A DNA stretch of 63,623 nucleotides, counting the filler, from Folioceros fuciformis (Eukaryota): assembly GCA_049999805.1 (NCBI GenBank). It is 7 parts of 7 records of this genome, joined end to end, with 100 filler letters (N's around TTAATTAATTAA, not from the genome) between each part and the next. Parts side by side here need not be neighbours in the genome. Positions count along the whole stretch, not along the records: positions 22,425 to 34,287 come from JBNGIO010006147.1; 6 more parts are not named here. One strand, 5' to 3'. Numbering within the stretch: the first letter of the stretch is position 1; every line of letters begins with the position of its first letter. A program made the position numbers and the translations under genes. A model generated the notes under the pieces. It saw only the letters and a program-made list of their open reading frames with translations, was not told the origin of the DNA and made no database searches. Shown piece after piece: positions 3,854 through 56,016 of this stretch.

Positions 3854-4112
3854 CTCCCACCTAAACCCACACGAGGGTTACTCATACACACTTTACTTCG
3901 CACAAACTGTAATCATACAGAAGCACTAAGCCACCGCTACCTATGAGTGACATGGTACACTACATGGAGCTCCTGTCCGTGTTCCTCTCGTGCATGCTAC
4001 TCGTGAGGAAGGAAGGTGACACATACATAAAGGTGGGAACGCGCACAAGGGCTACTTCCAATGGCAACGCCACCCTCACTCACAAGACGCCCAAGGATGA
4101 AGAAGACCAACA

Positions 4113-4609: not shown

Positions 4610-4829
4610 GCTTCATCCTCTGGACAATCCATGTGTTTGACACTAATCTGAGACTTGTCTTTCTAAGTAGGGAGGCTACAAACCTAGAGCAGTTTCAAAA
4701 CAGAACGGTGGTAAGGGCCACTAAGATGCATATCCCTTGTGTGGACAAGACAGCAGTGAACTCCCCAGGACAAAGCCATGGCTCTGCATAGAATAGTTAG
4801 GTTATTTTCTTAGGATAGCTGAACTCTTT

Positions 4830-5890
4830 AAGACCTAAGGCACCCATGTGCTGAAAATGTTTGGCCTTTGGGAGCCCTTTTGTGAAAATATCAGCGGTGT
4901 TCAAGTGAGTACTGATGTACTAACTTTGATAGCTCCTCGTTCTGCCACATCCCGGACATAGTGATGATAAAGCTCTATATGCTTTGTCCTCCCATGAAAC
5001 CTGGGATTGGAAACGAGAGCTATAGCACCCATATTGTCGCAGTGCACCTTAGTTGGTCCGATTTGCGGTTGTTGCACTGACTCAAGAAACTACCTTTGCC
5101 ATTCAGCTTCTTTGCAGGCATCCGGAAGGGCCTTGTATTCTGCTTCGGTTGAGCCCTGCCTGTCGATTACGTAGAATCTGAATACCAAGGCAAAATTGAA
5201 GTTCACCTTGGTCTGTCATTTCGAACTCCTGCCTAAGCATGTCCTTAACTTTATTTAACTACCCTATGTCATTGCTGAGCAAGACACAATCATCGACATA
5301 TAGAGCCAAGATAACAAAGAGAGCACCAGTGGCAAGGTAGAACACATTTGTGTCAGCTGGACTTTGAAGAAAACCCAACGTCTGAAGGTACTTCACAATA
5401 CGCTTATACCAAGCTCTTGGGCTCTGCTTTAGCCCATATAATGTTTTAAGAAGTTTACAAACCTTCTTAGGCCACTTCTTGCTAACAAAACCCTCTGGTT
5501 GTTCCATAAACAGGGTTTCTTTAAGCTCGCCATGTAGGAAGGCAGTGCACACGTCCATTTGGTAGACTTCTAAGTCGAACTCTGCGGCCATAGCAATTAA
5601 GATGCGAACTGAGGGTGGTTTTACAACCGGGGAAAAAGTATCACCAAAATCAATTCCAGGAATCTGGCTAAAACCCCTAGCTACCAACCTGGATTTGTAA
5701 CGTGCTATGGTACGATCAGAAGTTAGCTTAGTTTTAAAAACCCACTTGCAACTGATAGGTTTTCTGCCCAGTGGTAGATCAACTAGTTTCCAAGTGTTAT
5801 TTTTAATCAAGCTGTTATATTCATCATCTATTGACTTGCGCCAGTGTTCTCCATCAGGTCCGTTTAGAGCCTCTGCATAAGACTGAGGAT
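4830..5890 (-). pseudogene. Copia reverse transcriptase-RNase H with internal deletion
   Basis: Motifs KWVFKTK, YKSRLVARGFSQ, QMDVCTAFLHG, LYGLKQSPRAW, LYVDD. At ~5150 QILRNRQAG joins directly to STEAEYKAL...HCDNMGAI...RTKHIE, so the RT C-terminal part and the RNase H start are missing. Confidence 0.92.
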
Positions 5891-6279
5891 CTGATCAAAC
5901 TTCAGGGACATGAAGATCAGACACATGAGCAGCAGGCTTGCAAATGTCTTCAACTTGATAGGGTGGGTTCAGCCAGTTTTCCCTTGTTCGTCTTTCACAA
6001 GTGGGATATCTCAAAGACTCTGGCTATACCTCACAGTCATTTTGTTGTGCATAATCACCAAACAGCAACCCAATATCTGAGGTAGCTTGATTGGAATCCT
6101 CCGACTCATGTAATGACAGGTCATCATTAGAGTCCTGTCCATGAAGATCCAGATCAGCATCATCTAGATCAAGGTCAACAGGTAAAGTAGCCTGTTGAAT
6201 TCCAGGTGGAGTTTCAGAGTCATCTCTAATAGCTTGTACAGTAGTATCTGCATCTTCATGTTCCTGTTGTGAAGGAGGC

Positions 6280-7680
6280 TCACCATCTAACATTGGATAG
6301 GTGTAGGGGTGGAGCAAGTACAGACTGATCGGTATCCACTAAAGGATCTACAAGATGGGGATCCACATCTAGCTTAGGGGATGACAATTCTCTAAAGGTA
6401 ACGCTGCGAGAGAGGGTAATTTTTAAGGTTTGGGGATCAAACAGTTTGTAAGCTTTGGACTCTTCTGAGTAACCCAAGAATATAAGGGGTTTAGCCCTAG
6501 CATCTAATTTCCCCCTCTTGGATTCAAGGATATAAGCAAACGCTGGAGACCCAAAAACTCGAAGATGCAAGAGGCTGGGCTTTTTACCCCAAAAGGCTTC
6601 ATAAGGAGTCTGTCCTGGGAGAGCTGCTGTAACCACACGATTCAAAATATATTTGGCAGCAACAACAGCCTCAGCCTAGAAGCTTTTAGGTAAGGATGAC
6701 CACGAGAGCATGCTTTGTGTCATTCCCATCAATGTTTGGTTCTTACGCTCGGCAACACCATTCTACTGCTGAGTGTAGGGAACAGATAGCTGCCGAATGA
6801 TGCCGAACTGCTGGAAAAGGTGATCAAACCTGTAACTTGTAAATTCACCTCCATATCTGTACGAAAGCACTTGACTAATTTTCCTGTTTGACATTGTACC
6901 ATTGGAATCTAGGAAGCAATGGTATCAAATACATCACTCTTCAGCTTAAGAGAAAAAGTCCAAGTGTAGCGTGAGAAGTCATCAGTCAACGTGAGATAGT
7001 ATTTAGCGCTGGCAAGAGACTTCACAGGGAGTTTACCAGCTATGTTAGAATGAACTAGCTCCAAGACAGATTTGGCCCTTGTTGATGTTTTATTCTTGAA
7101 TGGTAACTCTTTTTGCTTGGATAATATGCAGGAGCGACATGCCTCAAGATGCTTAAAGCAAGGAGGAAGTTGTTCTCTGTAACAGTTAGACGAAGACATA
7201 AGATCTAACTTAGACCTGTTCACATGTCCTAATCGTGCATGCCAGAGGTTAGCCTGTACATTGTAAGCAGCAACAGAGCCCTTACTTTGGATTTTTGAAT
7301 TGTTACTAACTGATACAAATCATTGATTAGAACAGCCTTAGCAATAGAAACTTCTGGAAATGACTGCTGGTAGATATAACACTTCCTGTTCTCAAACTTA
7401 AAGCCATATTTCTGACTCTGAACAAGGGCTCTGATGGATAGAAGATTCTTACTCATCTTAGGGACAAAGAGTACATCATCTAGATGCAGAACTGTTCCAC
7501 CAGAGAGAGGTATGTTTACTGAACTAGTTCCTTTTACCTTAACACCACGAGCATCACCAACATACATTAGTTGAGGTGACTGCTGTTTGTGTAGGGTGGA
7601 GAAGAGTTTACGGTTGTTGTAGACGTGAGCCGTTGTGCCAGAGTCCACAAACCAGGAGGGAGACTGATCCTTATAAGAAG
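6280..7680 (-). pseudogene. Copia protease, GAG-pre-integrase and integrase (frameshifted)
   Basis: WFVDSGTTAH, LFVPKMSKNLLS, CRSCILSKQ, LELVHS, DDFSRYTW, TPYEAFWGKKP, LRVFGS, FLGYSEESKAYKL. Confidence 0.93.
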
Positions 7681-8904
7681 TCAGGCAAACTGTAAGGACA
7701 GTACTCCCACTCTTATGCTAAGATCCAGAGGTCTTGTTCTCCTTTGATGTAATGTGAGCTTTAGATCTGGAATCCTTCTTAGGCTCACCCGCCTTCTTTT
7801 TCCTGCAATCACGTTCCTAGTGGCTGGGGATCTGACACCAATTACAGTTACCACTGCGTTTGGTTGGGAAGTTTGAAGGACAGGTAGAAGATGTGGGTGT
7901 CTTCTTGCCCTTGTCTTTTCCTCTCCACTATCCTTTTCCTTTGGAGGCAAACAGGACCTTCTCCCCTCGCAGGCGGGAACCTGAATGGGTATGTAGGTGG
8001 CCTTGTTCCTCTTGCAAGAGAGCCCCTATGATTTCATTCAGATTCAATGTTGATGGTAAAGAAATTAAAGTAATTAGGGTTTCATTACTTAAATTAATAG
8101 CCAGCATTTATTAATGCATTAAATTGAANNNNNNNNNNNNNNNNNNNNNNNNNNNNNNNNNNNNNNNNNNNNNNNNNNNNNNNNNNNNNNNNNNNNNNNN
8201 NNNNNNNNNNNNNNNNNNNNNNNNNNNNAAATGGGGGCTCTCTAAAAATTTCTTCTCTAGTCGATCACATCTACGTTTTTAGATGGTTGACCACTTGTTG
8301 TTGCCTTGTATGCGTCACGCAAGGTGGCATTCTGACTGGATATGAATGTTTGATAGGACAAAGGCAGGCTGGCCAACAGTTGAGTAGTCATCTCCACCTC
8401 AGTGATTTTGGTACCTAGCATGGCAAGCTGTGCCCGTAGGTGCCTCAACTTAGTGACATGAGCCCCAACTGGTTCCCCGTCCTTCAACCTAAGACTATGG
8501 AAGTTATTACGAGCATTGATCATCGTACAAACATTCTGAACCTGGTACGTATTAGACAGCTGCTTCCAGACAGCTTCAGCTGTTTCCAAGGTGTCAACTT
8601 CAGTTACTGTTGACTCATCCAGACTAGATAATAGTATAGCAAAAGCGACTTTGTTGCCTTTCTTCCACTTTGCTATCTCATCAGCTGTTGGTTGTGATAA
8701 TGTTGTGCTAGGGACCTTCAATGGATTGGGTATGGATCCGTCCACATACTCCCACACGTCCCTAGCATCCAGGTTAGCTTTCATTCTCACCTTCCAGCTC
8801 TCAAACCTGATGGGTTTCCCGTCAAATCTGTCTTTCTCCTTAAATTCACCTGAGTAAAGAGACCCGACAGATGTAGATTGAGGAGCTATTGGAATGGATG
8901 CCAT
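7681..8904 (-). pseudogene. Copia gag (UBN2-type with zinc knuckle), interrupted by an insertion
   Basis: ORF 8257-8904 contains FESWKVRMKANL and QLLASLPLSY. Removing 8058-8287 restores SGQPS-TLNLNEIIGALLQEEQ. A knuckle remnant CNWCQIPSH*ERDC lies near 7800-7850. Confidence 0.9.
8058..8281. mobile_element. Nested insertion of unknown type within copia gag (contains assembly gap)
   Basis: Flanked by duplicated GATGGT at 8052-8057 and 8282-8287. AT-rich non-coding sequence on both sides of a 100-N gap. Confidence 0.75.
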
Positions 8905-9351
8905 GATGGGCTGAATAAGTGTTGGATTGACAGGAATGACAGAAAGTGGTGGATCAGAATACAGCCAAGAGAATTAGTCCAAATTTGAATCACTATCTGA
9001 GTCAACCTACAACATCAGCTACATACCCAACAAGGCACAACTACAACATAGCCTGATGAGACAGAAAAGGTACGAAACGGTTTGTTGAAATAGCGTTTTG
9101 TGAACTCTAGTTTTAGTTCTTAAAAAGGAAAACCCTAAAACTATGTCATGTAAACATCTAACTGAATAACGATTCACATGACATTGGCAGGGGACCAAGA
9201 ACGCAAGAGACATGACTCCAGCAACGAAGAGGCAAACAATAGATGGATCTTGACACGTGGATGCATCATTCAACAGGTACAACTCTAGAAAGTGCTTGTT
9301 GAGCGCTCCCTTGTCAGCATGCTGGGATCCCAAATGCTGTAACGCACCGCT

Positions 9352-9810
9352 TCAGATCTTGGAAGTTGTTGCACCCTGCTGATCCCCAGCACTTGCTCCC
9401 TCCCTCATGGAAACGAGTGATTTCAGATATAGGGCTGCAACTAGCTGAACGACGGAGATTGAAGAAGATTCCCGAAAAACCTTGAGACTAGCAATCTCAT
9501 TCGCAAGTTGACTGACTTCTGATTGGAGAGATTCCACATCGGAAGAAATTTGTTCAAGCTTTGGCTGAGTCTGAACAAGCAATCGAGTCAACAGGGCTTC
9601 AATGCTGTCCAACTCAGAGGAGAATCTCTTACTTGCAAAAGGACGTCTTGTGGAATCCAATTGATCAAATAATGCCACGTCTTTGTCAACTCCTACTAGC
9701 CAATTGTCTCTTTTAGTCCTTGATTGCAAAAGGTTTCTCCTCTCAATCTCAAGACATCTGGCGAGCACACGACTGTAGTAAGTGTGAGGAGAGACAAGAC
9801 ATTCTCTCAC
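9352..9810 (-). CDS. Extra ORF between PBS and gag, predicted coiled coil
   Basis: 152 codons without stops, sense to gag, with heptad-like LEQISSDVESLQSEVSQLANEIASLK. The ORF-track start is not ATG. Confidence 0.45.
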   Translation of the reverse strand: MRECLVSPHTYYSRVLARCLEIERRNLLQSRTKRDNWLVGVDKDVALFDQLDSTRRPFASKRFSSELDSIEALLTRLLVQTQPKLEQISSDVESLQSEVSQLANEIASLKVFRESSSISVVQLVAALYLKSLVSMREGASAGDQQGATTSKI

Positions 9811-10046
9811 TCCATTCTGCCTCTCTCTATCCTGGATCCGAACATCAGAGTCCAGATTATTGTGTCACCTTAGGATATAATCGGACCTAGCAGCCCAAGG
9901 AGGTGTAGGAATAGGCCTGTTGCTATGCCTACCACTCCTTCTGGGCATTTTAAGCACAAGGACCAGAAACTGATGCGACTATCATCTATGATTATTGAGA
10001 CCCTAGACTAGACACATCAATACAGCGGAAGACTCAAGAGCATCGA

Positions 10047-10060
10047 GGGCTCTGATACCA
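10047..10060 (-). promoter_or_regulatory. Primer-binding site (initiator tRNA-Met)
   Basis: Minus-strand TGGTATCAGAGCCC immediately inside the 5' LTR. Confidence 0.95.
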
Positions 10061-10256
10061 TGACAATTATGTCTTGTAATTAGCTAGAGTACCTAGACTA
10101 AGAAGCAAGACTTAGATACAAATATAATGTGTGTATATATAAAAATGAATACAGATGTCCTTATATACAAAAATTGTAAGTGTCCTTTGAGTTAGATAGG
10201 TTAACCCTCAAGTAACCTATCTTAAGTAAACTCATGTTGGGTTTAATTCCCCAATA
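10061..10256 (-). repeat. 5' LTR of copia element
   Basis: Direct repeat of 3658-3853. The terminal CA has changed to TA. Confidence 0.95.
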
Positions 10257-13747: not shown

Positions 13748-14994
13748 GAGAGATGGAGGACGAGCATCGAACGGACCGTAGAAACGCAACCCGGCTGTGG
13801 AAGGCCTGCGCGCTGCCTGTTCGGGGGCCTGTGTAGAAAGAAGCCTGAGCAAGGGCCGCCACAGCCGAAGCTACTGCTTCACGAAGACATCCAGCTGCCG
13901 TTTGCCTCCTCACTGCTCTCCGGGACCTTCATCTCAGGTGAATCTTAGAGGCAGCTAGGACATCCAGATCCGTGTCTCATTCTTTGTCTGACAAGGCCTT
14001 TCAATGTTGCTACATAGTTTCTGGTGATTGGGAAGCAACCTTGACTGCCAATCACCAACCTTGACTGTTGGTATGTAGGATTGCGGTACAACTCGTCATC
14101 CGTTTCTTCCTTCAGATTTTAAAAGACCAGGGCCTGCCTGAGTGCGTTGGAATTCGATACTGCGCGACATAACTTTCTGGCTTGTGATTTGGAAGACACA
14201 GTGGCTGCCTGTGTCTTGGATTTCGATACAAAGAAACTGCAGTTTCTTCGTCGAGGTTTGAAGGAAGCAATGGTTCATTGCTTGTTTGCGTGTTGTAATC
14301 TGATTGAAGGAGACTAGCGTTTCTTCTCGTGATTTGAACGAGTCGTGAGTGTTTGCATCCGATACCGAGATAGACAACATCCGATACCGAGATAGACAAC
14401 AGCATGGTTTGAACCTTGTGCCTTGGAAGAAGCTGAAGTTTCTTGCTTGGCTGTGGTTAAAAGTACAAAGCGTTCCGGATTAATCCACTGTTTCGGAGCT
14501 TCAATGGATTTTTAATATATATTTCGGGTCTCCATTTCCCAGGCCCGTGAGGAGCTGCGGTACGCTTACAAAGCGTACCGCGATTTTGTTGTTGAAGACA
14601 ATAATTTTATATTATATTTATAAGTATCAGGCTGGGAATGGCTGGTGGAGGCTCGTGCCGAAGCTGGCCCCAAGACGGAAGAATATGGCCAGGCTGGGAA
14701 TGGCTGGTGGAGGCTCGTGCCGAAGCTGGCCCCAAGACGGAAGAATATGGCCGGGAGGGCCTTGGAGAAACCATTTTAGTACTGCCTTGCAGAGCCATTT
14801 TAGGTATTGCCTGCAGTGCCATTTTAGGTACCGAAGCGCTAGCCCCACTTTAGGTACCGAAGCGCCAGTGCCATTTTAGGTACCGAAGCGCTGGCCAGCC
14901 CCACTTTTAGGTACCGAAGTGCCATTTTAGGTACCGAAGCGTTGGCCCCACTTTAGGTACTCAAGACCCGAGAAGGAGACCCCTAGAGTATATT
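13748..14994 (+). repeat. 1247-bp direct repeat, copy 1 (copy 2 at 21078-22324)
   Basis: Identical by eye. The ORF track is identical with offset 7330. Confidence 0.97.
14628..14961 (+). repeat. 2 x 62-bp tandem repeat followed by ~8 copies of CA(T/C)TTTAGGTACCGAAG-like motif (duplicate at 21958-22291)
   Basis: Read directly. The spacers are short, variable and related to each other. Confidence 0.85.
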
Positions 14995-19439: not shown

Positions 19440-21600
19440 GCATGTACTTCTAGAAACGCGAAAATCCCTCCTATCTTCAATGAGGATTTCCCAACACCGA
19501 TACAAAGCCAGCAACAGAGCACACGTTTCACCTTGTCCCTCCACTTGCTATCCCACCAAAGCGAGGTATGAGCACCAATCTCCACCGACAAGTCTTCCTG
19601 CAGATTTCAATCACTTGCCAGCAAACACGTAATATTCCAGCACTGCACTCTCCAGCATCATGTCAATGTAAGTTGAATTCCAAAAACCAGAGAATTACCA
19701 GGCCGAAATATGGATATGCTGGGCTCTATTCCCGTGTGCACACTTGACAACCGCCTGTACCACTCCTGGATGAAGCTGCAGGGGAATGGTTTCTTTGGCG
19801 TCGGGCATGACACATCCAAACTCCGGTGTGAAAGTCCAATTCTCTTCATCCCGCTGCTGCTCTCCCACACTGGACACGCTTAAACCCTAAACCCTTGCCT
19901 GTTGCGCTGAGACTATGAATGCTGGGCAGGCAACAGATGGGCATCCCCGAAGCATGCTTAGTTCCATGGCCTTAACCTTTAGCCAGGGCAGGTGCTTGAT
20001 TACCACACCTCGATCCTTTCTTGCCACCCTTGCGCTTTTCCCCGCATTCGCGCTCACCCTACGCTCCGAAGATGGAAGACGAGCATCAAGCGCACCGGAA
20101 AAACACGATCCGGTAGCGGGAGCTTGTTTCAGGGTCCTGTGGAGAAATAAGCTAGAGCTGCGGTTCCCCGACCTCGCTGCTCTCCAAGACCTTCTTGGCA
20201 GGTTGATCTTAGAGGCCGCTAGGAAATTCAGATCCATCTGCTGCTAGCAATTCCATCGTGTCTGATTTGCCATTAGATTTTACGACAACAGTTTCTTCAT
20301 GTGAGTAGGAGAAGTCGATGGCCGCGTGTGTGTAAGATTGCCATCCAACGGGACCTCAGTTACTTGTATGTGAATTGGAAGACGCAGTGGCTGCTGGAGT
20401 GTTGGAATCCGAGAAAAATGCAGTGGCTGCTGGAGTGTTGGAATTGCAGACAAAACGACATCAGGTTTTTCCTTGATGGTTTGGAAGACGCAGTCGCTGC
20501 TTGAGTCAAAATCGTCAATGAAGATTTTCTGACGACACAGAACCAGTAGTAGACCACACCACCTACTACTACCAACTACCTCCCCCGACAGGCCTTCATG
20601 CAAATTCTATCACTCTCAGCAAACACGAAATATTTCAGTCACGGCATCCTCCAGCGTGTCAATGTAACCTGCATTGCTAAAACCAGGGAATTGCCAGGCT
20701 CACATCTGAATCTGCCGAGCTCTGTTGCCGTTTGCAAACTCGGCAGCTGCCTGGACCACAACTGGAGGAAGCTGCAAAGGGATTGATTTCCTTGACTTCA
20801 GGCATAACACATTCCATCTCCGGTGCGCCGGACCATGTCTTTTCATCCCGTTGCTGACGTCCCGCTCCCGCTATCTACGCACTCCAACCCTAAACCCTTT
20901 CGTGCTGAGCTGAGACTCCAAACCCAAGGCGGGATACGCGTGGGCATATGTGAAGCATGCTCAGTTAGAGTCCATTCCATGGCGTTGACTTGTTGGTACA
21001 GCAACTGCTTGATTTTCGCCCCGATCCTTTCCTTCAATCCATGGGCGTCTTCCCGAACTCACGCTCGCCTTAATCTTGAGAGATGGAGGACGAGCATCGA
21101 ACGGACCGTAGAAACGCAACCCGGCTGTGGAAGGCCTGCGCGCTGCCTGTTCGGGGGCCTGTGTAGAAAGAAGCCTGAGCAAGGGCCGCCACAGCCGAAG
21201 CTACTGCTTCACGAAGACATCCAGCTGCCGTTTGCCTCCTCACTGCTCTCCGGGACCTTCATCTCAGGTGAATCTTAGAGGCAGCTAGGACATCCAGATC
21301 CGTGTCTCATTCTTTGTCTGACAAGGCCTTTCAATGTTGCTACATAGTTTCTGGTGATTGGGAAGCAACCTTGACTGCCAATCACCAACCTTGACTGTTG
21401 GTATGTAGGATTGCGGTACAACTCGTCATCCGTTTCTTCCTTCAGATTTTAAAAGACCAGGGCCTGCCTGAGTGCGTTGGAATTCGATACTGCGCGACAT
21501 AACTTTCTGGCTTGTGATTTGGAAGACACAGTGGCTGCCTGTGTCTTGGATTTCGATACAAAGAAACTGCAGTTTCTTCGTCGAGGTTTGAAGGAAGCAA
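19440..21600. repeat. Diverged tandem duplication, period ~1.0-1.1 kb
   Basis: Co-linear matches, e.g. AGATGGAAGACGAGCATC (20070) / AGATGGAGGACGAGCATC (21081); ACCCTAAACCCTT (19885/20888); TTGGAAGAC(G/A)CAGTGGCTGC (20375/21520). Confidence 0.75.
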
Positions 21601-26421: not shown

Positions 26422-27669
26422 TTATGGAAGTTGAATCAGAACAAGCACACCTGCAAAGAACAGCCAGATGAGGTGTACTAGAAGCAAAGATTGCTGTGCC
26501 ATAGACCCTTTCCCACCTGCTCCATTCTGGATACTACAGAATCCAGAATGTGCAACCTCCACTCCAGCGCATTTGGCATCAGCTATGCCACACCAATACG
26601 TCACTCCGTTTTCACCACACACAGGATCCGCTCTGAAGCAGTTCGGGACGCAAGGCGCCACCTTCCGAGTGTCTGAATGACCCGAACCTTCCCTTCCTCC
26701 TTCCCCTGACACCAACACTTTCTCGACAGCCTCCTCCTCAACCTCATTCTTGGGTAATCTCAAACCGTTGGGATACTGAACAATCAAGGAACCCAAAACG
26801 GGACCCATCGAGAACAGACGTCGGTTAGGCATAGGCGGATCTGCAGGTCCCTCCAAAGTCGCCTGCAAGTAGTTGACCAGATGCAATGCATCACTGATCA
26901 TCCTTCTTGCAGCGTCCGACAGGCGAATAAACTGATCACCAATCTGCGAGTCCCCCTTCTCATTCAAAGAGTCGTAACATGTCTCAATGTCAGTCTCGCT
27001 GGCACTCAGATACGTGTTCAAGTCAGCTAACTCGTCCACCGCTGTCGCGTAGTCCATACTCAAATTGCTGTAGATCCTGATCGACGTATTCAAGTAGTCT
27101 AACGAGCTTTCCATATTCTCAAGACATGTTTGCAAAGCAGCTATGACCAACGGATTCCCGCCACTGGAACCCTTAGTCAAAAACGCTGTTGCAGCCTGCC
27201 ACCCAGTTTCACTCTCCCTCTTGGCAATCAAGAGCCCTATCCCCACTAGTTCCCTCAAGGTCGCGTTATTCCCGCCAGGATATGCAGACAAAGACTGAAT
27301 GCAAGATTCCGGGTACAAAGTTCCATTACATGCCACCTTGATGAGATCCGATACCTGCTGCTCAGCGCTGGCCGGCGGTTGCGGAGCGGGAGCAATGCCG
27401 TTGCCAACGATGCCCCCTCCGCCCCCGCTGTTCACACTTAGGCTAGAACCACCTCCACGCCGAGGCAAAACCACCGCCAGTGGTATCACCACGGCCAGAA
27501 CCACAACCACTGCAACGACGAGAAGAACTGCCACAGTCTTGGAGTTGAAGTGGCTCCTGACCTCCCCGCAGCCACCCGAAGGATGCACCAGCTCGTACTC
27601 GGGAGAAGCCCCGGTAAGGACGTCCTTCAAGTCCTTCAACTCCCGGATCGGTGAGCTTCCCTTCGTCAT
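26422..27669 (-). CDS. Membrane-anchored PMEI/invertase-inhibitor domain fused to a Kazal-type protease inhibitor domain
   Basis: Intronless 415 aa. N-terminal TM helix; PMEI motifs IKVACNGTLYPESCIQSL, AALQTCLE, TYLSASETDIETCYDSL; basic motif NRRLF; plant Kazal CVPNCFRADPVCGENGVTYWCGIADAKCAGVEVAHSGFC; tail QSLLLVHLIWL. Confidence 0.9.
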   Translation of the reverse strand: MTKGSSPIRELKDLKDVLTGASPEYELVHPSGGCGEVRSHFNSKTVAVLLVVAVVVVLAVVIPLAVVLPRRGGGSSLSVNSGGGGGIVGNGIAPAPQPPASAEQQVSDLIKVACNGTLYPESCIQSLSAYPGGNNATLRELVGIGLLIAKRESETGWQAATAFLTKGSSGGNPLVIAALQTCLENMESSLDYLNTSIRIYSNLSMDYATAVDELADLNTYLSASETDIETCYDSLNEKGDSQIGDQFIRLSDAARRMISDALHLVNYLQATLEGPADPPMPNRRLFSMGPVLGSLIVQYPNGLRLPKNEVEEEAVEKVLVSGEGGREGSGHSDTRKVAPCVPNCFRADPVCGENGVTYWCGIADAKCAGVEVAHSGFCSIQNGAGGKGSMAQQSLLLVHLIWLFFAGVLVLIQLP

Positions 27670-28126
27670 CTCCTCGCGATAGAGGCTCTCACAGCGCTAG
27701 GCCCTTGCGTGCATCACCATCATATCTGGAATTCAGGATTTCAGCGCTCGGCTGTGTGTCCGGTACGCGCTCCGAGCCTGACTCGCACAGCGCGCCTGAC
27801 AGAAAAACTCTTGACCCTACTGTCATTCAAGCACCGACGCTGCAATCATGTATTCCCTTCACCTCGCTCTCTCCGAACAAGCCAGCTGTTGCAAGCCAGC
27901 CTCGCTTTGAACCGCAAAAGAACCGCGTGCGTAGCTGGGAGGAACGTTAAAAACGTCTGCCAATGCCTAGCTGACAAGCCGTGTGCTCCCGGATCCCTTT
28001 CCCCAAAAAAGAAAAAAGTTGGGACGCGGCGTTCAATGCCTAGGTACATTTCTTTCTTCTAGTATGTAATATGGAATTCGGCCGTTCCTACCACTACAAT
28101 ACACAGCTTTTGACCCTGGCATGCAA

Positions 28127-28127
<1 letters not shown>

Positions 28128-28178
<51 letters not shown>

Positions 28179-28353
28179 TGTATGTATGTATGTATGTATG
28201 TATGTATGTATGTATGTATGTATNNNNNNNNNNTATGTATGTATGTATGTATGTATGTATGTATGTATGTATGTATGTATATATGTATATGTATGCATGT
28301 ATGCATGTATGTATATGTATGTATGCATGTATATATATATATATATATATATA
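28128..28353. repeat. Compound microsatellite (TAAG)n(TATG)n(TA)n
   Basis: Read directly; contains a 10-N gap. Confidence 0.97.
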
Positions 28354-28571
28354 TCCAACTCAGGAAGAAAGCCCATGATGCCTCCCATAGATTATCATCC
28401 ATGGGAGCTATTTCTTTCTACAGTTCTCGCGTGAGGGCGGTTTAGGGTTTAGGGTTTAATATCTCCTGGTGTAACCTGACCATCGAGACATTTGATTGCT
28501 GTGTGCTTGGCGTGTATTGCAGTTTGTGTTTATTGTGATGTAGTGCTCCAGCGGGAGAGGGAACCGGGGAG

Positions 28572-31140
28572 ATGGGAAGGAGGTCAGTTGCAGCAGGTGT
28601 TGCTGTGAGGATTGGTGTGATAAATGCGTGGGACACTCTGATGAAACGGACTTCTGGTGCACTATCATGGCTGGTCGATAATCGCCGTTTGTGGTGGGTA
28701 GTGGCAGAATCTCGTGAGCTTGCTGCTCTGGAGGTGAGTCTGTCAGGGCTTGCATCACGTTCTCGCCACGGGATTGTGGTGGGTTTTGATATTTTGGTGG
28801 TGTCTCGTGTGTCATACAGATGGGGGCAGGGCAGCCTGGTAAGCTCACATTGGCAGGTGCTGCATCCAAAAGTGCGCTGTCACGTTCAGCTCTCACAGCT
28901 AATGGCTGCTGGCCTTTGAAAATGCCAGTGGACAACGGGCGACATGGGCCTGGTGAGGGTGTCTTGCGTGTGGCTGAGCTGAGAAGGTGGTGCTCAGGTG
29001 GGTTTTGAATGCTGCCTGCGTCGGGTGAAAACGGGTTCTTAGCTGTGGGGCTCAATGTTGGAGATGCTTTCTTGTGTGGTGCTCTCTCACGTGTTGTGTT
29101 TTCGATACAGGGTCGACTTGGAGGTCAGCATGGCTGGCTGAGACTGAGGAGGAGGTGGATGTTGTTTCGAAGTCACATCCTGAGGCTGATAGCTCGTCGG
29201 GCTTCATTCATGTGCAGGATGACATGATCGAGAAGTCAGAGGCTGATGGCTTGGGAGGCTTGGAACCTGCCCAGAATGAAATACTGGACGAGATGGATGG
29301 GGAGGCTACGAGCATGAAAAGGTTACCTCGTGGACCCAGTGGCAAGTATGAGAACCTGATGGAGGTAGTGAGGCTGTGCAAAATGGAGGTAGTCGCTGCT
29401 GAATCAAGAGAAGATAGGATGGGACTTGGTGGAGTGCTGCTAGAGGGACCATTCGAGTTCGTGAGGATTCCTGGCAGATCTTGGTCTTTAGTTGACTCAA
29501 GTGAGAAGCTGCTTGCTAAGGCAGCTAGCATGGCCCTGAGCAGAGTGTACGAGCCACACTTCTCTGACTACTCCCATGGCTTTCGTCCATCCAAGGGTTG
29601 CCACTCTGTCATGCTGCAAATGAAAAAGAAGTGGAGGGGGATAAATTTCTTCATGAAATATGATATCAGGAAGTGTTACGAACAGATTAATCGACAGCAG
29701 CTTCGACGTGTTCTGGAGGAGCAGATAGAAGATCAACGGTTTGTTGATTTGGTGCTGAGACTGTATCAAACTGAGGCGCGTGTCTGTCACGAATTGAAGG
29801 ATCCCCCACCTGAGACCGGATTCCCAAGAGGCAGTATCCTTCTGAAAGCTCTCTGCAATGTTTATTTGGACAAGCTGGATCAAGAAGTCTTGAAGTTGCA
29901 AAAAGAGTATGAATATAGTCGGGACATGGATGACTTTCAGGAGGACACTCATGACCACGAAGACGAGGCTTCAGATGATTCGGAATCAGAAGCAGATCAG
30001 GGTTATAGTTATAGGAAGGGGGATGCAGAAGTTAGGATAAGATACCTTCGTTATGGTGACGAGTTTCTGGTTGGTTTCACGGGGCCGAAACCTTTAATGA
30101 AGGATATTCAGCACAAGATTCAGGACTTTGTAAAAACAGATCTCCTTCTAGACGCCCAGTTGGACCATCTTGTGCATGTGACCAGTGGGCACGTAAGGTT
30201 TCTTGGTATGCGAGTTGCCGGTCTCCCTGAGTCCAAAGGAATGAGGCGGTATGCTAAGGGAATGGAGAAGCGTCGGCGAGTGAAGGCTCGTCTCAAGCAG
30301 TTTGCAAAGCAGCGTCAAGAGAGCTGGGATATCCAGATGAGGAATCTTATCCTGCTTGCCTGGGCAAGGGCTTTCAAGAAGGTTAGATCAACTGTTGCCT
30401 CTAGCATGGAAGCTCAGCACGTCCTGCACAAAAAGGCGAGGGAGATCGTCACAAATTATGCTCTGGAGAGACTTGAAGCAGGTGACAGTAAGCAAACAGT
30501 TCTAGAGCTTCTGGAAAAGGAGAAGGTGGACAGGATGAAGGTGTCCTGGCTTGGAATCCCAGAGGAGATCTGGGAGGCTCATGAAAATTTGACACAGGTG
30601 ATGCAGGACTTTTGGGACGAGGAAGATAGGGCAGAAGCTGAACTAGCCGCTGTCACCCTCAGGGTGAGCAACAAGGTGAGAGCCCAAAGGCGAAGCAAGT
30701 ATCGTGATACCATTCCTCTCCAAGTATTGGCCTCGATGGAGGAAATAACAGATAAATTGAAGAAACGTGGGATACTCACTCCTCGGAAGAGTCGTTCGAA
30801 CTCACTCGGGCCAAAGACCAACATTCCAGATGAGGAAATCGTAGCCTACTTCGCATCCGTGGGTTATGCACTTCTCACGTACTATCGTTGCTGTGACAAC
30901 CTAACAAATGTGAGGAGGCTCGTTGACTACCAGATTAGGTGGTCAGCAGTTTTCACACTCGCCACCAAACACAAGAGTAGCGCCAGGCAGGTGATTGGGC
31001 AGTACACTCGAGATCTGCATGTGTTTAAAGACGGGAAGATGATAGCCAGGTTTCCTAGCTCGGTAGAGCTGGTGAGAAACATGGGGAAGCGGTTCCTCCC
31101 AGGCATGTACCAGGCGATGGTGGACGAATTCATACGGTGA
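28572..31140 (+). CDS. Nuclear-encoded group II intron maturase, MatR-like; model join(28572-28733, 28820-28952, 29111-31140), 774 aa
   Basis: RT blocks YEPHFSDYSHGFRP, DIRKCY, GFPRGSIL...NVYLDKLDQE, RYGDE, RFLG. Domain X YYRCCDNLTNVRRLVDYQIRWSAVFTLATKHKSSA. Two GT-AG introns (86 and 158 nt) with compatible phases give 2325 nt in frame. Confidence 0.9.
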
Positions 31141-34100
31141 AGGGTACTTCACCGTACGTGATGATCTCTGAGAAGGGTGAAGGGAATCAGCTCTTGTCGC
31201 TCTCAATCATCGAGGTGCTGCCCGAACTTTCTGAATTGATGAGATGTCCACCATTCAGGTTGGTTTTCCCTGGTCCCCTTCGGCTGCCTGTAGTCTAGGA
31301 AAAGCTGCCAAGCCCTCCTGATCTACGGCTAAGTGACAAAAGCTTGTTTCGTGTCTGTAGGGTGTTGTTGCAATTGGGTATCGTTGCTTCAGTATGCGCT
31401 GTGTACATTCGAGCAAGCTGAAGCCATTAGACTATTAGCGGAGCTGTGGCTGCTTGTCCATGAACCTCTGAGAATTTCCTTCGTGTACTTTATCTGTTGG
31501 GAGAGGGGAAAAACTTTTACGTTAAGATACTTGCAGTGCTGAAGGTTTTTCAAGAGGTTCTCCCTTGTAGGGAAACGTCATAGCCACAAGATTCTGAGCT
31601 GTATGCAGAGACCATTCCGTGCAGGGAATGGCACCCTTTTTGTACCAGGAGGTAGAGGGTTTCCATTGTGGCATACTCATCTCCTGGACGAAGGGAATCT
31701 CTCACGGAAGTTATAATGCAAGGTTGGGGACTGGAGACTTCCTGTTCCGCATGTTCCTCAGATGAGGGTTGCTCTCGGCGAGTCTTTCGGAAGGCTTTGA
31801 TCTGTGTACGAGGGAATTCTGTGCCACGACACCAGTTTCAAGTGGACTTCTGTTAGAAGTGTGTATTCATTTGATTGTCAATTGCTGCGACTCAAGAATT
31901 GGGAATTTACGTTTCTGCGCAATTGATGAGAAGCGTTTCCTCAGATGGAATGTGGCATGGGTACCGGTCACGAGTTGCAACGCTTCGACTCTCTGTGGAC
32001 TTGATCAAGAGACGTATCTAGAAGCCACGGCTCTTTCACAAACTGTTGTAGCTTCTGAAGAGCTCGCGCGAAACATGAACCTGAGGACACTCTTCAACCT
32101 CAAGACGCCAGTAGCTCTATCACCCATATGCAGTCCAGTAACTCAGCATCAGCAGTACCAAAAGGGTACCATGCCCCTCTCTGCACACCCACAGCCGCTG
32201 ACTGGTGTTCGTTGAACAAACTGACGTGGGTTACAGGCGGACCTGCACAAGACGTCAACAAAAACTGCCGCAAAAGTTTTTTTGCCTATGGTTGTCAGAG
32301 AAAACTACACGAACGTATCCTTGGCGAGAAACGTTGTAGCTACCTTCCCATGGGCGCAAGATGTGAACATCCGAACATGTATTTGATTCGTACCCAAGTG
32401 TGAGATCATGAAGCGGACACAACACTGACAGATCTTTCTTAGCTACGCACGATTTGAGCGCATGACAGCAGCGTGCGTAATTCCAGCTCCATTCCAGAGC
32501 CTTAACGGCCTCACGATCCTTCCCTCACCTTGCTGACATTGTTGCTCTCGGTTCCAGCTGTTCCGACGCGCCGGAGGCACTTCAGATTTGCAGGCTTACC
32601 CAAATCCGTCGAGGTCGCCTTTTATTAAAAACAAAGTGATAAGGTACATACGGGACGTCGTACCTCCTACCAATCGCCCACAACAAACCCCTAGACTACC
32701 GAGCTTCTGGAGATCTCCTAGAGCTCTACACTCTGCTTCTGCTCCAGATCCAGATCCTGATTATGCATGTATGCGCCTGCATACACAATCAAGAGCTGAA
32801 ACCGGAGCAAAAACTTCGTCCTCAAGACGCCTGACCACATGCTCGTATGGAAAGAAGCAGCTCTCCTGGGCATACAGTTTCTAACGGGGGCTGTTGAGTT
32901 GCGTCACCACGCCGATGACGTGAAGGTGATGGGTGCAAGCGACAGGCAGGAGATTGGCCGGGGGTACAGGTAAGGGAGCGTTGGAGGAGCCGCTTCGGAT
33001 AGCCCGTGTTCTGCACACAACAACAGTCAGCATCGTTGCTACCACAGAGCACGTCCAGAAGTAGACCCATGGTGGCGCTGGCCTTGCTCCAGCTGGGACA
33101 GGAAAGCTGGAAGCATGCGGGCAAAGCGGATGAGGTGAAGGTGTGCTGTGAGAGGAGGGCAGAGAGGCGGCGAAGCATGCCGACCTGATGATGGAGGATG
33201 CAAAGACAAAAGGACGAGAAGATGTTGTGAGAAGAAGATGGCGACGAAAAGGACGAGGATGTTCCCACGCCTTCAAAAATGCTCCAGGGCTTTCAAAACA
33301 TCCCGTGACCTCATGCCCTGCACACGTGTGCGTATAAGGACACATCAGCCAAGCCAATGTGCTTACAAGCCAAGCTTCTGGCATTTTCCAAGCAATTGCA
33401 AGCAAACAAGCAGCTGGAATGATGGGAGGTGCCAAGAACGCACAGCGCTGCGCTCCGCTTCGCTGTGTTGTCCGCAAAACAAAGCTGAGCAGCAAAGGGA
33501 ATTTGCTTAGGTTTATTACCTTGGCGGCAGAGCAGCAATGTCCGGGTCGCCGTGGTTGCACACCCTGGGCCGTGTCCAGGTGAAGAGAGTGCCAAAAAAG
33601 CAGTGGAACACCGCAGTTGACGTTCTTGTCCACCCGCAACTCCTCTTCTAGCATGCTGTCAAGGTTGGTTATCTTGGAGTTGAGATTCGTCGGCATACGT
33701 AAGGTAAGGTACGCATGCTTGTTGACAAGGGATCCAGATGCGAGACATGGCGAAGCTCCTACAGCTTGCAACCATGATGGGGTATCCATCCCTATTGGCC
33801 GACCATGAGGCTTCATGGTCACACAACAACAATGACAATGCTCCACAGCTTGACAACAACTACTACTACTATGAGGCTTTATGTCCAGACGATAACTGAA
33901 GGAAGAAAGGTATGTGGTTAGACCACAACAACACGCCGTGGGCTAGCTGATCAATGGAGGAGAGGAAAGGACCCTCCACAATCCTCAGGCCCAAAAGCGC
34001 ACCATATTCCCCTCAGCTCTCCTGAGCTTGAGTTTCATGCACACTAGTTCCATGGATTGGACCAAGCAGCATCGGCATCATCCTCGTGTATCACCTCCCT

Positions 34101-44765: not shown

Positions 44766-46606
44766 ATGGCAGGAGCACGGAGCTGGATCAAGGTGGTGAA
44801 GCAGAACAGCTATCTCAGAAGAGGAGGGGACTCGGTGGCGGCATCCGAGTCGCCGAAACGGGGCATGGAATCTTACCTCGGAGCCATGCTGTTGGCCACC
44901 GTCTTGCTTCTCTCCAGCACCCTGGTTGTGCTGCAGTCATGCACTTCGCTGGAAGGGCTGCTGCCGGCCGCCGGCCTGGGTCCCAAGGAAAGCTCACGAG
45001 CAGGGCTGCTGAGGCGGTCACGTGACGCGGCTATGGACACCAGACAGGCTGTGCAATGGCTCATTCGGCAAGCGGAGAAGAACGGCACAGACAAGTGCGA
45101 AGAAGAGAGCACCAGCAGGGTGGCGCTGGTCGGGCGGTCCGATCTGCAGGACGGGAGGCCCCTACTGCTGGAGGCTGGAGTGCCGCATGAGCTGCTCGTT
45201 GTTTCCTACACTGAGAACGGCACACGGCGGTGTGCTGGTGGCGATTTCTACGAGACTGCGCTCACAGGTGACTCAGATTCAGTCGTCCCTTCTATGTTAG
45301 ATTCAGTGTCTTTTATGGGGGAGATGGTGTCAGTTGGTGTGGAGCTCATTCTGCGTGTTTGGCTTGGTTGTTAGCAGGTGTGGCATGGAGATCTCGGCCT
45401 CCTGTTGTGGATCTCGGTGATGGATCATACATCATCAGGTTTCTGGTGCCGGAAGGAGTGACTGGTGTTCTGAAGTTTAGCGCAGTACTGCTGTTCGGGA
45501 ATCTCCACGGGCTCGATCTCGTGCCGGACTCGTGGATTCAAGACAAGGAATTGTTAGGGTTTGATGTCGAGTTTGTGGCAGCATTCCGGAGGGAGGTTCC
45601 CCAAGGTGTGAGCAAGGATAGGAACGATGACCTGGTACTCAAACGCTGCAGGGATACGGATTACAAGGTGAGGGAGTGGTTGGGACAGTGGACTCGCACT
45701 TCCTTCAATGCGTCCTGCGACCGGCAGCCTGATGCAGACGGTAGATTCCGATGCTTGGATCCCAGCACGCCCTGTGACCCATCCTGGTGCGATGGAGCCG
45801 CCGGCAGGATTGAGAGCAACGGGTGGATCTACTCCGCTCACTGCAAATTCCGTATCTTCGATCCTGCAGCGGCTTGGCAATGTGCGAGCTCCTTGCGATG
45901 GATCTTTTTCTGGGGCGACTCTAATCACCAGGACACCATCCGCAACCTGCTCAATCTGGTACTGGGCTTGGGCGTGGGCACGCCGAGCAGAACATTTGAT
46001 GCCACATTTCAAAACCCCGCCGACATTTCTCAGAGCCTGCGCATCACAAGCATCTTCGGAGGCCACTATGAAGAGTCTGGGAACAACCTGGGCCTGGCAT
46101 CCCTGTACCATGAGCCCTACCGTGACTTCCTCCGATCCTACTTCACCAACAGCCAAGTCCCCACTCTCATGGTGCTCAACTCAGGCCTACATGACGGTAA
46201 GAAGTGGAGCAATCTGACAGAGTACGTGAAAGCAGCGGAATTCGCAGCCAATTTCTGGGCTGAGTTATGGGACAAAGCTGGAGACCACAGTAAGGCGAGG
46301 CCCAGGGTTGTGCTGCGAACCACTGTGGCTCCGGCCGGGGAATCGCGTCACATGCCCGCCAATCCACACAAAATGGAAGTGTTCAACAAAGTTCTGGTGG
46401 ACAGGTTTCTTGCCACCGACATCTCGTTCCAAGTGGTGGATGCCTATGACCTGACGTTTCCTTGGCATTTGGACAACAACTGCAGCGATGGGGGACACTA
46501 TGGCAGGCCTCCTGCTCTGGAATCCTGGTTTGGACAAATGGGCCATCAGTACTTTGTCGACGTCATGCTTGCTCACATCCTGCTCAACGTTGCCTGCTCA
46601 CAATAA
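44766..46606 (+). CDS. Type II membrane SGNH/PC-esterase (TBL/NXPE-like) protein; join(44766-45267, 45378-46606), 576 aa
   Basis: N-terminal TM; RRCAGGDFYETAL|GVAWRSRPPVVDLGDGSY; IFFWGDSNH (GDS); NSGLHDG; DGGHYG (DxxH). The phase-1 intron is consistent. Confidence 0.88.
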
Positions 46607-52980: not shown

Positions 52981-53823
52981 GAACTCAACATCAAGAGCTT
53001 TAAATGCTCAACTTAAGAGCCTTTCACTAATTGAATGGTGACTACCTATCCCTATCCGACTGGCACATCCTTCCAAAACTCTTACAATCCTGGCTCATGC
53101 TTCAAAAAGTCTTACCATGCTCCCAAGAGATAGTGTTCACCATATCAAGAGCTTTAAATCCTCAACTTAGGAGCCTTTCCAATTAAGTGGCTGCTACCTA
53201 TCCGCATGTCATACCCTTCGACTCTTCTTACAGTGGCACATGCTTCGAAAACTCTTACAGTGCCACTCTAATCCACCTAATTCACCACAACCACACGTTA
53301 CCGCTTCGAAAACTCTTACAGTGCCACTCTAATTCACCACAACCACACGTTACCGTATCTAGGCAGCTACCCGATGTGGCAGCGCTTAGCAAGCACTTGC
53401 ATTCTAACTTGGCCTAAGCAGGCTGTTTGCCATTAACTCAGTTTTTCCTCATTAGGCGCAGACCCTGTTCTCCCACTCCTTCTCTATCTGTCACCCCGGC
53501 TTGTTATCACCTCTGTCATGCATGAAGGTGCACAGTCCCCATACCCTCAGTACCCAGTCTTCTTGTAGTCTTGCAAATGTCAGGCTGCAGTCTATCCTCA
53601 AACCCTAGACCTATAGCTGGACCTAAACAACGCCATCAACTCTGAAGCTGGCATCCGAAACCCTAAACCCTAACACACCACCATCTTCTTCCCCTATAAC
53701 TTGGCCATGCCCAGGAGGCGGCACTTATCTGTGGAGTGAGTCTCCGAGCCCACTGTCCCACAGCCTGAAGTTCGAAGAAAGGGATGGATGGCCTTGGTTG
53801 GAGGCCTATCCACAGAATCTTCC

Positions 53824-54542: not shown

Positions 54543-56016
54543 GGCATTATGTGAACATCTTCCAGGAACTGATCCTCTGTCAACGTCAACGAACCGATGT
54601 ACTCCACCACTAAAGGCCGGCTTGGGGCTGGAGTCTCCATCCTGGAGGGCCCTCTTTCGGACAAGCCGTATCGTAGACATGACTCGGTCGTACTGACAGT
54701 ACGGTTGCTCTCTTCTGGACAAGCCGTATCCTGTACTCGATGGTGCTGACAGTACGGTTGCTTGTTTTAACATCAAGCATCCACTGCAAGCTGGACTGGA
54801 TGTGCGTAATTGGAGACTGACAAGTCTTTGCTGTCCAACGACGTCCGTGGGTGGACCGGTATAGACCTCGGTTCTGGTCCCGGTCCAAGACTTGTGGGGA
54901 CCGGGTCGACAAGTGTAAAAATGATTTTCCGAAGACTGTTCGCCAAACAGTCCTCGGAAATTGATCCCTTTCATTCCCAGCCTACCGAACAGTGTTCGGG
55001 AGGCTTCGGCACCGGGAATCAAACGGACGAGTGTACACCTGTCCACATCCTCCCAAATGGAAACTGGCCAGTGTTCATCAGTTGCTCCTTAAGTGTTCAT
55101 GGGGCGGCTGTTTGATAGCAGACGATGGGACTATCTGGTCTTGGGGCTACAATGCTTGTATCCGGTGGCTGTTGATTTTTTTGGCTTCCGTGCTATGTAC
55201 ATGCTTGGTTGCTTCTGCCGGAGATCTGCTATTTGCAACTGAGGTCATGCACTGACAATTTTGGCCTGAGGTACTTGTCAACTGTGACAATTTTGGCGCG
55301 AGGTACTTGTCAAGTTCCTTGACAGGTGCACACATGGTCAGCTGGGTCGGGACGGACAAACCTCGAAACTGTTAGAAAACAGGAAATCCCAAGCTCAGTC
55401 CTTGGACAAGTTCATTCAGAGCAGGTAGTCCTTACACACTTATGTAGACTTAGGTCTATTCGCTGTCTCCCTGGAAAGATAATTCATCTCGAGGCAACCT
55501 ATAATATGCCTCTAATACAAACTAGATGTGTTGCTCGAACCCTACAGGCTTCTAACGCAAACCCATACCACGCAGAGGTTTTTGAGAAGGGGCATGGTCG
55601 GCACAAGTGATGATCCAGAGGAGAATCAGGTCTCTGATGAGAGGAAATGTGACACCAGTGCTGTGAAGGTGCGCCGGCCCTTGCGAGCCCTTCTCCCACG
55701 CTCCGAGCATTTGTATGCGTGACAGTTCTGACAGGTATCCTGTAATCAGGCAGGCTGTGGCCATTGACGCTGGTGGCATGATGTCATGTGCTATTGACGC
55801 GAATGGTCCCCTATCACCGGATCTGGATGCTCAAGGACAGCTGTGTTGCTCAGTCTTTGCGCACCCTGACACTGGTGCGAGGGCCGGGATATCACACATA
55901 GGTTTCCAACGTCGCTTGTGGCAACGAGCACGTACTGGCTCTGGTACGGCCAACGGCAGGGGCAAGCGATGCATGGTATGCATGGGGAAGTAACAAGCAC
56001 GGTCAGGTAGGGCAGG
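54543..56016 (+). repeat. 1474-bp direct terminal repeat, copy 1 (copy 2 at 59555-61028)
   Basis: Identical by eye. The ORF track repeats with offset 5012. Confidence 0.97.

Follow-up and report, generated by a model that had tools for sequence, protein, structure and literature searches.

We analyzed a 63,623-nt stretch of DNA from Folioceros fuciformis (assembly GCA_049999805.1; hereafter the window), which consists of seven parts of seven records joined with filler letters; parts side by side need not be neighbours in the genome. Within the part taken from JBNGIO010006147.1 we identified a gene for a maturase with a reverse transcriptase (RT)-like domain and a domain X. The gene is nuclear, and it is transcribed and spliced in three species. 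We found that this free-standing nuclear gene probably descends from the mitochondrial mat-atp9i95g2-type maturase lineage and not from matR (mat-nad1i728g2). An earlier reading of the locus, made from the sequence only (the sequence-only reading), had proposed a transfer of matR or a close paralogue to the nucleus; the close paralogue agrees with our results while matR does not.

The coordinates of the gene and of the other features are collected in Table 1. The three coding segments joined together gave 2370 nt, that is 789 codons with zero internal stops, and the frame that contains exon 3 (29029-31140, plus strand) is open for 703 codons. An in-frame TGA (28536-28538) precedes the ATG by 36 nt, and the sole upstream ATG, at 28538, opens a one-codon upstream open reading frame. 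Four public sequencing runs were compared with positions 28400-32400: X1 and X3 (organism A, the window's species), X5 (organism C) and X14 (organism D). The joint of intron 1 was found in both X3 (shorter side of 181 letters) and X5 (177 letters), and removal of intron 2 was seen in a 2651-nt contig of X5 (shorter side of 177 letters). Intron 3 lies in the 3' untranslated region (UTR), begins 118 nt past the stop codon and is conserved in organisms A and D, where its joint had shorter sides of 255 (X3) and 132 letters (X14). The DNA run X1 gave a 1674-nt contig that was colinear with 28400-29934 and in which the intron 1 joint was absent. Since the spliced joints of X3, X5 and X14 were absent from the DNA run, we take these contigs to be processed transcripts. 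The exon 2/3 junction was supported independently because P0169, a protein of a more distant relative, carries the motif RWCSGS.WR.AW that spans this junction, uninterrupted.

The sequence-only reading had predicted two phase-compatible introns with junctions 28733/28820 and 28952/29111 and had suggested a search for spliced transcripts over them. Spliced transcripts were found in the contigs of the three species, and those of X3 and X5 confirmed the first junction as well as the acceptor at 29111. On the other hand, the second donor needed correction: a GT is present at 28953, yet no contig joins 28952 to 29111, and the contigs use 28998 (28997/29111). This donor lies 45 nt downstream, leaves the phase unchanged and adds 15 codons to exon 2.

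We then compared the protein with known maturases. A word-based search gave 18 matches among 7999 candidates. These included P0002 (703 amino acids (aa), 68% identity), two mitochondrial proteins of Coleochaete scutata (34-35%) and, as the nearest named protein, Mat-atp9i95g2c of Phylloglossum drummondii (P0003; 38% over 90% of the query), while matR-type proteins aligned mainly over the C-terminal fifth. A profile word-search with a 17-sequence alignment gave 4 matches among the 7999 candidates, none of which added a named relative. When 1.84 billion representatives were scanned exhaustively with HMMER, 5390 proteins matched at E<=1e-3, with one close cluster (P0002, 65%) and the next match at 37%. 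P0169 (844 aa) was found to be a full-length orthologue with 68% identity over 602 columns. Of the top 150 representatives, 30 were looked up by name; among these, P0040 is a maturase-related protein of Sciadopitys.

Phylogenetic trees placed the query with the atp9i95-type proteins. The FastTree analysis had 118 rows (117 of 119 identifiers, two under 400 aa being dropped, plus the query). The IQ-TREE analysis (LG+C20 with posterior mean site frequencies, PMSF) had 39 rows: the relevant FastTree clade contributed 31 of its 42 rows, to which Sphagnum P0200 and seven outgroup rows were added; P0002, P0025, P0005, P0009, P0010, P0011, P0049, P0050, P0077, P0090 and P0112 were omitted as near-duplicates or long branches. 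Support is given as the Shimodaira-Hasegawa-like approximate likelihood ratio test (SH-aLRT). In the IQ-TREE analysis the query paired with P0169 (100), and the sister of this pair (99) comprised the mitochondrial mat-atp9i95g2 of Phylloglossum, the nuclear Selaginella protein XP_024518366, and P0027 together with a nuclear Sphagnum protein. The joint clade of the query with mat-atp9i95g2 had a support of 97 in IQ-TREE and 96 in FastTree, and the two methods agreed on the grouping. The phylogeny with MatR that the sequence-only reading had called for thus upheld the origin from a mitochondrial maturase and not the placement inside the MatR clade.

The sequence motifs were in agreement with the trees. 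An RT7-X linker with ESWD and GIPEEI..AH..LT and a C-terminal MGKRF tail are common to the query, P0169, Phylloglossum, Selaginella, Sphagnum and P0027 but not matR; these features, like YxDE in RT5, are clade-specific as defined in our 8-sequence alignment and not from the literature. The RT5 motif reads YGDE in the window protein, YADE in P0169 and Phylloglossum, YLDE in Selaginella, YGKE in Sphagnum (YGKE or HGRE among the Sphagnum and P0027 proteins) and YADD in matR. The sequence-only reading had noted YGDE, an acidic insertion between RT blocks and a set of further motifs, and all of these are present. It had described YGDE as an altered YADD; YGDE itself stands, but the Asp-to-Glu change predates the nuclear copies, since the mitochondrially encoded Phylloglossum protein also has YxDE. 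Similarly, DIRKC, NxYLxKLDQE, EKRxRVK and YYRC...KHKSS, quoted as MatR signatures, mark the superfamily and not MatR because they also occur in the atp9i95-type Phylloglossum protein and in Coleochaete maturases.

Pfam detected RVT_1 at residues 153-366 (E 1.1e-12) and Intron_maturas2, i.e. domain X, at residues 566-660 (E 9.7e-12). No HNH or other endonuclease domain was matched by Pfam in the protein, whose C-terminus lies ~40 residues past domain X; absence of the D and En domains is also typical of matR and many organellar maturases, and nMAT3/4 retain a degenerate En domain. The Asp of RT3 is kept in the window protein (YDIRKCY, 29659-29679) and is Asn in P0169 and Selaginella, whereas the RT5 motif (30052-30063) is not an intact YxDD. 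The YYRC...KHKSS block in domain X was conserved in the 8-sequence alignment. By sequence, the best solved relative was LtrA of Ll.LtrB (5g2x_C, E 2.5e-25). For the exon 3 product, an AlphaFold2 model based on an alignment of 60 sequences had a mean predicted local distance difference test score (pLDDT) of 78.6 and a predicted template modelling score (pTM) of 0.69, and its top Foldseek match was LtrA in its ribonucleoprotein (8h2h_D, E 4.9e-14, 591 columns), followed by the RT domains of other group II maturases. Confidence was low in the acidic N-terminal linker, the shortened RT0-RT2 region and the acidic insertion; the insertion sits within a 43-residue stretch with 18 Asp or Glu residues and is probably disordered. 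The motifs suggest loss of RT activity. Judging from the alignment, the conserved element in this clade is domain X with the linker and not the polymerase chemistry, since the RT3 Asp and RT5 vary and the Sphagnum proteins are without the part before RT5.

The nuclear location of the gene follows from its spliceosomal introns, from nuclear genes and copia-type sequences as neighbours in the window and from the lack of group II intron RNA. With Rfam at the gathering score, no family, group II introns included, was matched in the whole window. At E<=10, none of the 23 rows in 27500-33000 was a group II intron; all were microRNAs, small RNAs, small nucleolar RNAs or long non-coding RNAs, and 20 of the 23 fell on the microsatellite at 28126-28352. 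The gene is free-standing and is not encoded in domain IV of a group II intron. The window also holds a PLS-type pentatricopeptide repeat (PPR) gene, a PGG-domain gene and fragments of copia-type gag and RT, as well as three direct-repeat pairs 5-7 kb apart. Pfam and Rfam therefore bore out the description of the locus as an RT plus domain-X maturase without endonuclease domain or group II RNA, and the microsatellite and nuclear-gene flanks that had been described were found as the repeat and the PMEI-domain gene of Table 1.

The N-terminal extension comprises the 113 residues before the exon 2/3 junction codon. The first 20 residues have no acidic residue (the first one is at position 21) and the net charge over the first 30 is +4, which agrees with the added basic extension described in the sequence-only reading; the N-termini of P0169 and of Selaginella P0183 are alike in basic character. 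Relative to organism C, exon 1 with the 5' UTR differed at 48 of 287 letters, exon 2 at 22 of 177 and exon 3 at 158 of 2152. This gradient fits a fast-evolving presequence ahead of a constrained core. Exon 3 differed from the contigs of organism D at 131 of 1696 nt, and the sole length change listed in the coding region of the C and D contigs was one 3-nt insertion. Mitochondrial import of the protein is plausible from these N-terminal features together with its mitochondrial ancestry. Between the presequence-like region and the RT domain, the unit S-G-S-x-W-R-(A/S)-A-W followed by a Glu/Asp run (29119-29180) occurs once in the window protein and in four tandem copies in P0169 (residues 106-200); this linker region is predicted to be disordered.

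Our reading of the origin of the gene is as follows. The ancestor would have been an intron-borne maturase of the mitochondrial lineage whose present-day representative is mat-atp9i95g2 of Lycopodiaceae (intron family F11; Zumkeller and Knoop 2023). Its reading frame would have moved to the nucleus without its intron RNA and would then have acquired a 5' stretch split by two spliceosomal introns, which encodes the basic extension of ~113 residues (a putative mitochondrial presequence) and the acidic linker; the 3'-UTR intron would also have been gained after the transfer. The RT-like fingers/palm and the thumb (domain X), the parts that bind intron RNA in solved maturase complexes, were kept. 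By analogy with LtrA, nMAT1-4 and MatR, we propose that the protein enters mitochondria, where it binds the RNA of group II introns via the RT-like surface and the thumb and aids folding and splicing. It most likely acts only as an RNA-folding/splicing cofactor, since the polymerase motifs are degenerate across the clade. Because the ancestry of the protein points to them, we tentatively name the mitochondrial F11 introns atp9i95g2 and atp6i80g2, plus cox1i653g2 if the organism is a hornwort, as candidate clients, an assignment that is possible rather than probable. PMC10012718 records atp9i95g2 and atp6i80g2 from mosses, hornworts and lycophytes and cox1i653g2 from hornworts only, and it reports 'no traces of maturases' for the 'moss-hornwort' family F11.

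We considered whether the gene could be a nuclear-transferred matR orthologue, as in Pelargonium, for which a nuclear matR has been described (PMC5174742), and find this very improbable. MatR, including the nuclear Pelargonium copy (P0012), and mat-atp9i95g2 belong to one superfamily (SF10-11-17-28; PMC10012718); MatR also consists of RT and X without En and has a very similar domain X core, the domain X of the query being 45-47% identical to the matR-type proteins P0007 and P0011 over ~20% of the query. However, the matR clade stood separate with an SH-aLRT of 100, beside Coleochaete and Zygnema proteins in IQ-TREE; it had nine rows, including Pelargonium 'maturase RX' and the Sciadopitys protein, of which the seven unnamed ones are called matR-like by their clustering with these two named proteins. 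When the query and P0169 were held with the nine matR rows as a clade, the cost was 59.1 log-likelihood units (lnL), and the approximately unbiased (AU) test rejected this arrangement (p-AU 0.001). In addition, MatR keeps YADD and normally lies in nad1 intron 4, the RT7-X linker and C-terminal tail of the query align with atp9i95-type proteins but not with matR, whose RT7-X linker is unrelated, and the context is nuclear with no remnants of nad1 intron RNA. Orthology to MatR was therefore rejected. Membership in one of the angiosperm-type nMAT1-4 clades is scarcely more probable. The make-up of the gene (nuclear, RT plus X, N-terminal extension) is nMAT-like, and an Atlas feature search returned a cluster named 'nuclear intron maturase 2, mitochondrial-like' at rank 3 (score 0.93); the nMAT proteins also derive from mitochondrial intron ORFs, are imported and act in trans on several introns (PMC3927076 and PMC10012718). 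On the other hand, the nearest relatives of the query are atp9i95-type and algal mitochondrial maturases, and no nMAT name was met among the 30 representatives looked up. Zumkeller and Knoop (PMC10012718) place nMAT1/2 with F03 and nMAT3/4 with F10, apart from mat-atp9i95g2, and it is by such descriptions from the literature that we set the angiosperm proteins apart.

Descent from a mitochondrial ORF, with a microsatellite and transposons nearby, would also be expected of a recent non-functional nuclear copy of mitochondrial DNA (NUMT). The chance of this is negligible in our view, as spliceosomal introns interrupt the gene, its 5' coding region was recruited, spliced transcripts occur in three species, a full-length orthologue at 68% identity exists in a distant relative, and there is no flanking mitochondrial intron or exon sequence. 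A further explanation, unlikely but to be taken more seriously, is that the window copy is under relaxed constraint, either as a redundant allele or homeologue or as a copy drifting to a pseudogene. Relative to the same-species contig of X3, the window had 12 coding differences in exon 3. All six non-synonymous ones (30533, 30572, 30614, 30659, 30796 and 31115) were derived on the window side, X5, X14 and P0169 sharing the other residue, and one of them, where domain X begins (model residue 676), changes to Ser a Pro that is conserved in >=90% of 60 aligned maturases. Two synonymous changes fell on the window side, and the X3 side had four synonymous and no non-synonymous ones. At three of these sites the DNA run X1 matched the window, whereas at two it had the other state; since it shares only part of the window's states, several haplotypes exist. 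RNA editing was considered for the T>C differences and rejected, as G>T also occurs and two sites vary in DNA, which makes polymorphism the simpler explanation. The window's allele may thus be under relaxed constraint, but the counts are small, the frame is open over all 789 codons with intact splice sites, and the X3 contig of exons 1-2 is identical to the window (0 other letters).

Apart from these derived replacements, several points weigh against the origin from the atp9i95-type lineage with mitochondrial import and a splicing role that we favour. In the window's own species, the removal of intron 2 was seen in one 56-nt contig of X3, whose sides of 26 and 30 letters are under our 31-letter rule for joints, and an unspliced 169-nt X3 contig over intron 2 (28969-29137) occurs alongside the spliced form; intron retention, pre-mRNA or DNA carry-over are possible readings of the unspliced contig. 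That X3, X5 and X14 are RNA runs is a guess backed solely by their spliced joints. None of the 30 looked-up representatives was named nMAT or Physcomitrella nuclear maturase, and the trees were without labelled nMAT1-4. The protein scored 104 bits against TIGR04416, the NCBIfam model of group II RT/maturases, which has a cut-off of 300 bits. The presequence was recognized by charge and composition alone, and plastid or dual targeting is an alternative to mitochondrial import. As for the clients, the absence of a working ORF from the F11 introns of this lineage is presumed, and Table 1 of Hecht et al. 2011 lists an ORF in the atp9i95g2 of the hornwort Megaceros (PMC5654404). Nuclear maturases also often serve several introns, which argues against a simple relationship with F11 introns.

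To estimate the number of transfers, we tested a clade made of the query, P0169, Selaginella, P0027 and two Sphagnum rows that excludes Phylloglossum. This clade cost 25.6 lnL (p-AU 0.0014), which indicates at least two independent nuclear captures within the limits of the test, as the group was chosen after the tree was seen and the nuclear status of P0027 and P0169 was assumed. The direction and the number of transfers are both inferred, and the Selaginella nuclear copies are probably a separate transfer. The outcomes differ by lineage: the window gene encodes a full RT-like protein, the Selaginella version is RT3-dead, and Sphagnum has an X-domain-only form. It is conceivable, although we would not call it probable, that the F11-type lineage was captured at least two and perhaps three times (in this lineage, in Selaginella and in mosses) with differing outcomes, that the client introns persisted ORF-less and that the WR(A/S)AW-acidic repeat is a newly acquired module. 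If true, this would be a natural replicate experiment on the change of a cis-acting intron protein to a trans-acting host splicing factor.

Among the known systems, Mat-atp9i95g2c of Phylloglossum shares the YxDE, the linker motifs and the MGKRF tail with the window protein. It differs in having 943 aa, in lying inside a mitochondrial group II intron in frame with the atp9 exon, in having neither spliceosomal introns nor a presequence, and in its longer RT0-RT2 region, which is shortened in the window protein. The Selaginella moellendorffii proteins XP_024518366 and XP_024524942 (P0183 and P0025, each named 'uncharacterized protein') are likewise nuclear (on 0.75- and 4.1-Mb contigs) members of the atp9i95-type clade with a basic N-terminus, YLDE and no En domain, but they are 33% identical to the window protein, have a long branch (1.2) and Asn in RT3, and are nearer to the Phylloglossum/moss side. 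The Sphagnum 'Domain X domain-containing' proteins (KAH8938064, P0200; P0033 cluster; 395 aa), which are nuclear and lie on contigs as large as chromosomes (16-30 Mb), share the clade, linker, X domain and tail, but start at RT5 and therefore are without the fingers and most of the palm. The P0027 cluster (437-500 aa, 20 members), sister to the Sphagnum proteins, is similar. The Sphagnum P0200/P0033 and P0027 proteins are candidate splicing factors for moss F11 introns. LtrA (5g2x, 8h2h) is the best solved match by both sequence and fold and binds intron RNA with its fingers/palm and thumb, but it is an active RT with YADD, carries both a D and an En domain and has its gene inside its own mobile intron.

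Transfer of maturases to the nucleus is already known from angiosperms, Selaginella, Physcomitrella and Pelargonium, and this locus is a further example. Guo and Mower 2013, as reported in PMC3927076, found seven additional nuclear maturase loci in Selaginella and five in Physcomitrella, and two Physcomitrella genes resemble mat-atp9i87g2 (PMC7049729). The authors of that survey of intron families noted that co-evolution studies awaited the genomes of hornworts and other early lineages. Neither a nuclear maturase of the atp9i95 type nor any nuclear maturase of a hornwort was described in the literature covered; the supplements of PMC10012718 and the figures of Guo and Mower may include the Selaginella member. 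Maturase gene transfer is how plants made the proteins of selfish introns into host splicing factors, and it often serves as a model for the origin of the spliceosome. The locus described here is neither a new kind of system nor a rare matR transfer. It adds a spliced, full-length nuclear atp9i95-type copy, makes recurrent capture testable together with its Selaginella and Sphagnum relatives, and supplies a candidate trans-acting factor for maturase-less F11 introns.

Table 1. Maturase gene and surrounding features, with positions counted along the window.
Feature	Position	Strand	Remarks
Maturase gene	28572-31140	+	Intact nuclear RT + domain-X maturase gene
5' UTR, minimum extent	28464-28571	+	X3 record 11 starts at 28464
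Exon 1, coding part, 54 codons	28572-28733	+	Basic N-terminus; joint in X3 and X5
Spliceosomal intron 1, 86 nt	28734-28819	+	GT..AG; joint 28731>28818, cut +2
Exon 2, 178 nt	28820-28997	+	Ends in RWCSGS motif running into exon 3
Spliceosomal intron 2, 113 nt	28998-29110	+	GT..AG; joint 28994>29108, cut +3
Exon 3, coding part	29111-31140	+	Acidic linker, RT-like domain, domain X; stop 31138-31140
WRSAW + acidic run, single unit	29119-29133	+	Motif between presequence-like region and RT domain
RT fingers/palm domain	29485-30126	+	RVT_1, LtrA match, 8h2h_D match
Acidic insertion between RT4 and RT5, 38 residues	29917-30030	+	Low model confidence
Helical RT7-X linker	30265-30720	+	ESWD and GIPEEI..AH..LT; alignment; long helices 373-532 of model
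Domain X (maturase/thumb)	30724-31008	+	Intron_maturas2 match
3' UTR, minimum extent	31141-31869	+	X3 record 14 ends at 31869
Spliceosomal intron 3, 102 nt, in 3' UTR	31259-31360	+	GT..AG; joint in X3 and X14
Telomere-like repeat (TTTAGGG, ~2.7 copies)	28441-28459	+	At 5' edge of transcript contigs
Tetranucleotide microsatellite, 227 nt	28126-28352		Period 4, 57.5 copies; N-run gap 28224-28233
PMEI-domain gene, upstream neighbour	26425-27696	-	PF04043, E 7.1e-22

The 5' ends of the transcript contigs, at 28445 (X5) and 28464 (X3), coincide with the telomere-like repeat. 'Telo-boxes' of this kind are associated with promoters, and the repeat may be a putative promoter element. The 14-nt telomere-like pattern had 2 matches in the window versus 0.01 expected; the second copy, on the minus strand (53661-53674), is imperfect.

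The protein of the upstream PMEI-domain gene has a Cys-rich C-terminal stretch, which we take to resemble a Kazal-type inhibitor module, followed by a hydrophobic tail, an unusual combination. For the Kazal-like stretch there was no Pfam match at E<=0.001. A copia-type long terminal repeat (LTR) retrotransposon occupies 3658-10254, with 194-nt direct repeats that are 6403 nt apart and 97% identical, and the enclosed gag, integrase and RVT_2 frames are split into several ORFs. The direct repeats 13748-14047 and 21078-21377 (100% identical, >=300 nt, 7330 nt apart) flank the PLS-PPR gene, downstream of which a DYW domain was looked for and not found. Likewise, the repeats 54543-54842 and 59555-59854 (100% identical, >=300 nt, 5012 nt apart) flank the PGG-domain gene. 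Both pairs of identical repeats are near N-run gaps and could be very young insertions or duplications or assembly artefacts.

A hornwort is the probable source of the window, which we judge from the short introns (86-113 nt), from the presence of a PLS-PPR gene, from the position of the moss nuclear copies elsewhere in the maturase tree, from the plant groups that are without annotated proteins in public databases, and from a single-exon ORF at 45272-46603. For this ORF, the top match was a protein without a name (62%), and the best named relatives were from liverworts (52-55%) and Diphasiastrum (51%), with no moss among the 120 proteins listed. A quick tree set this ORF on a deep branch of its own, apart from liverworts, Selaginella, ferns and seed plants.

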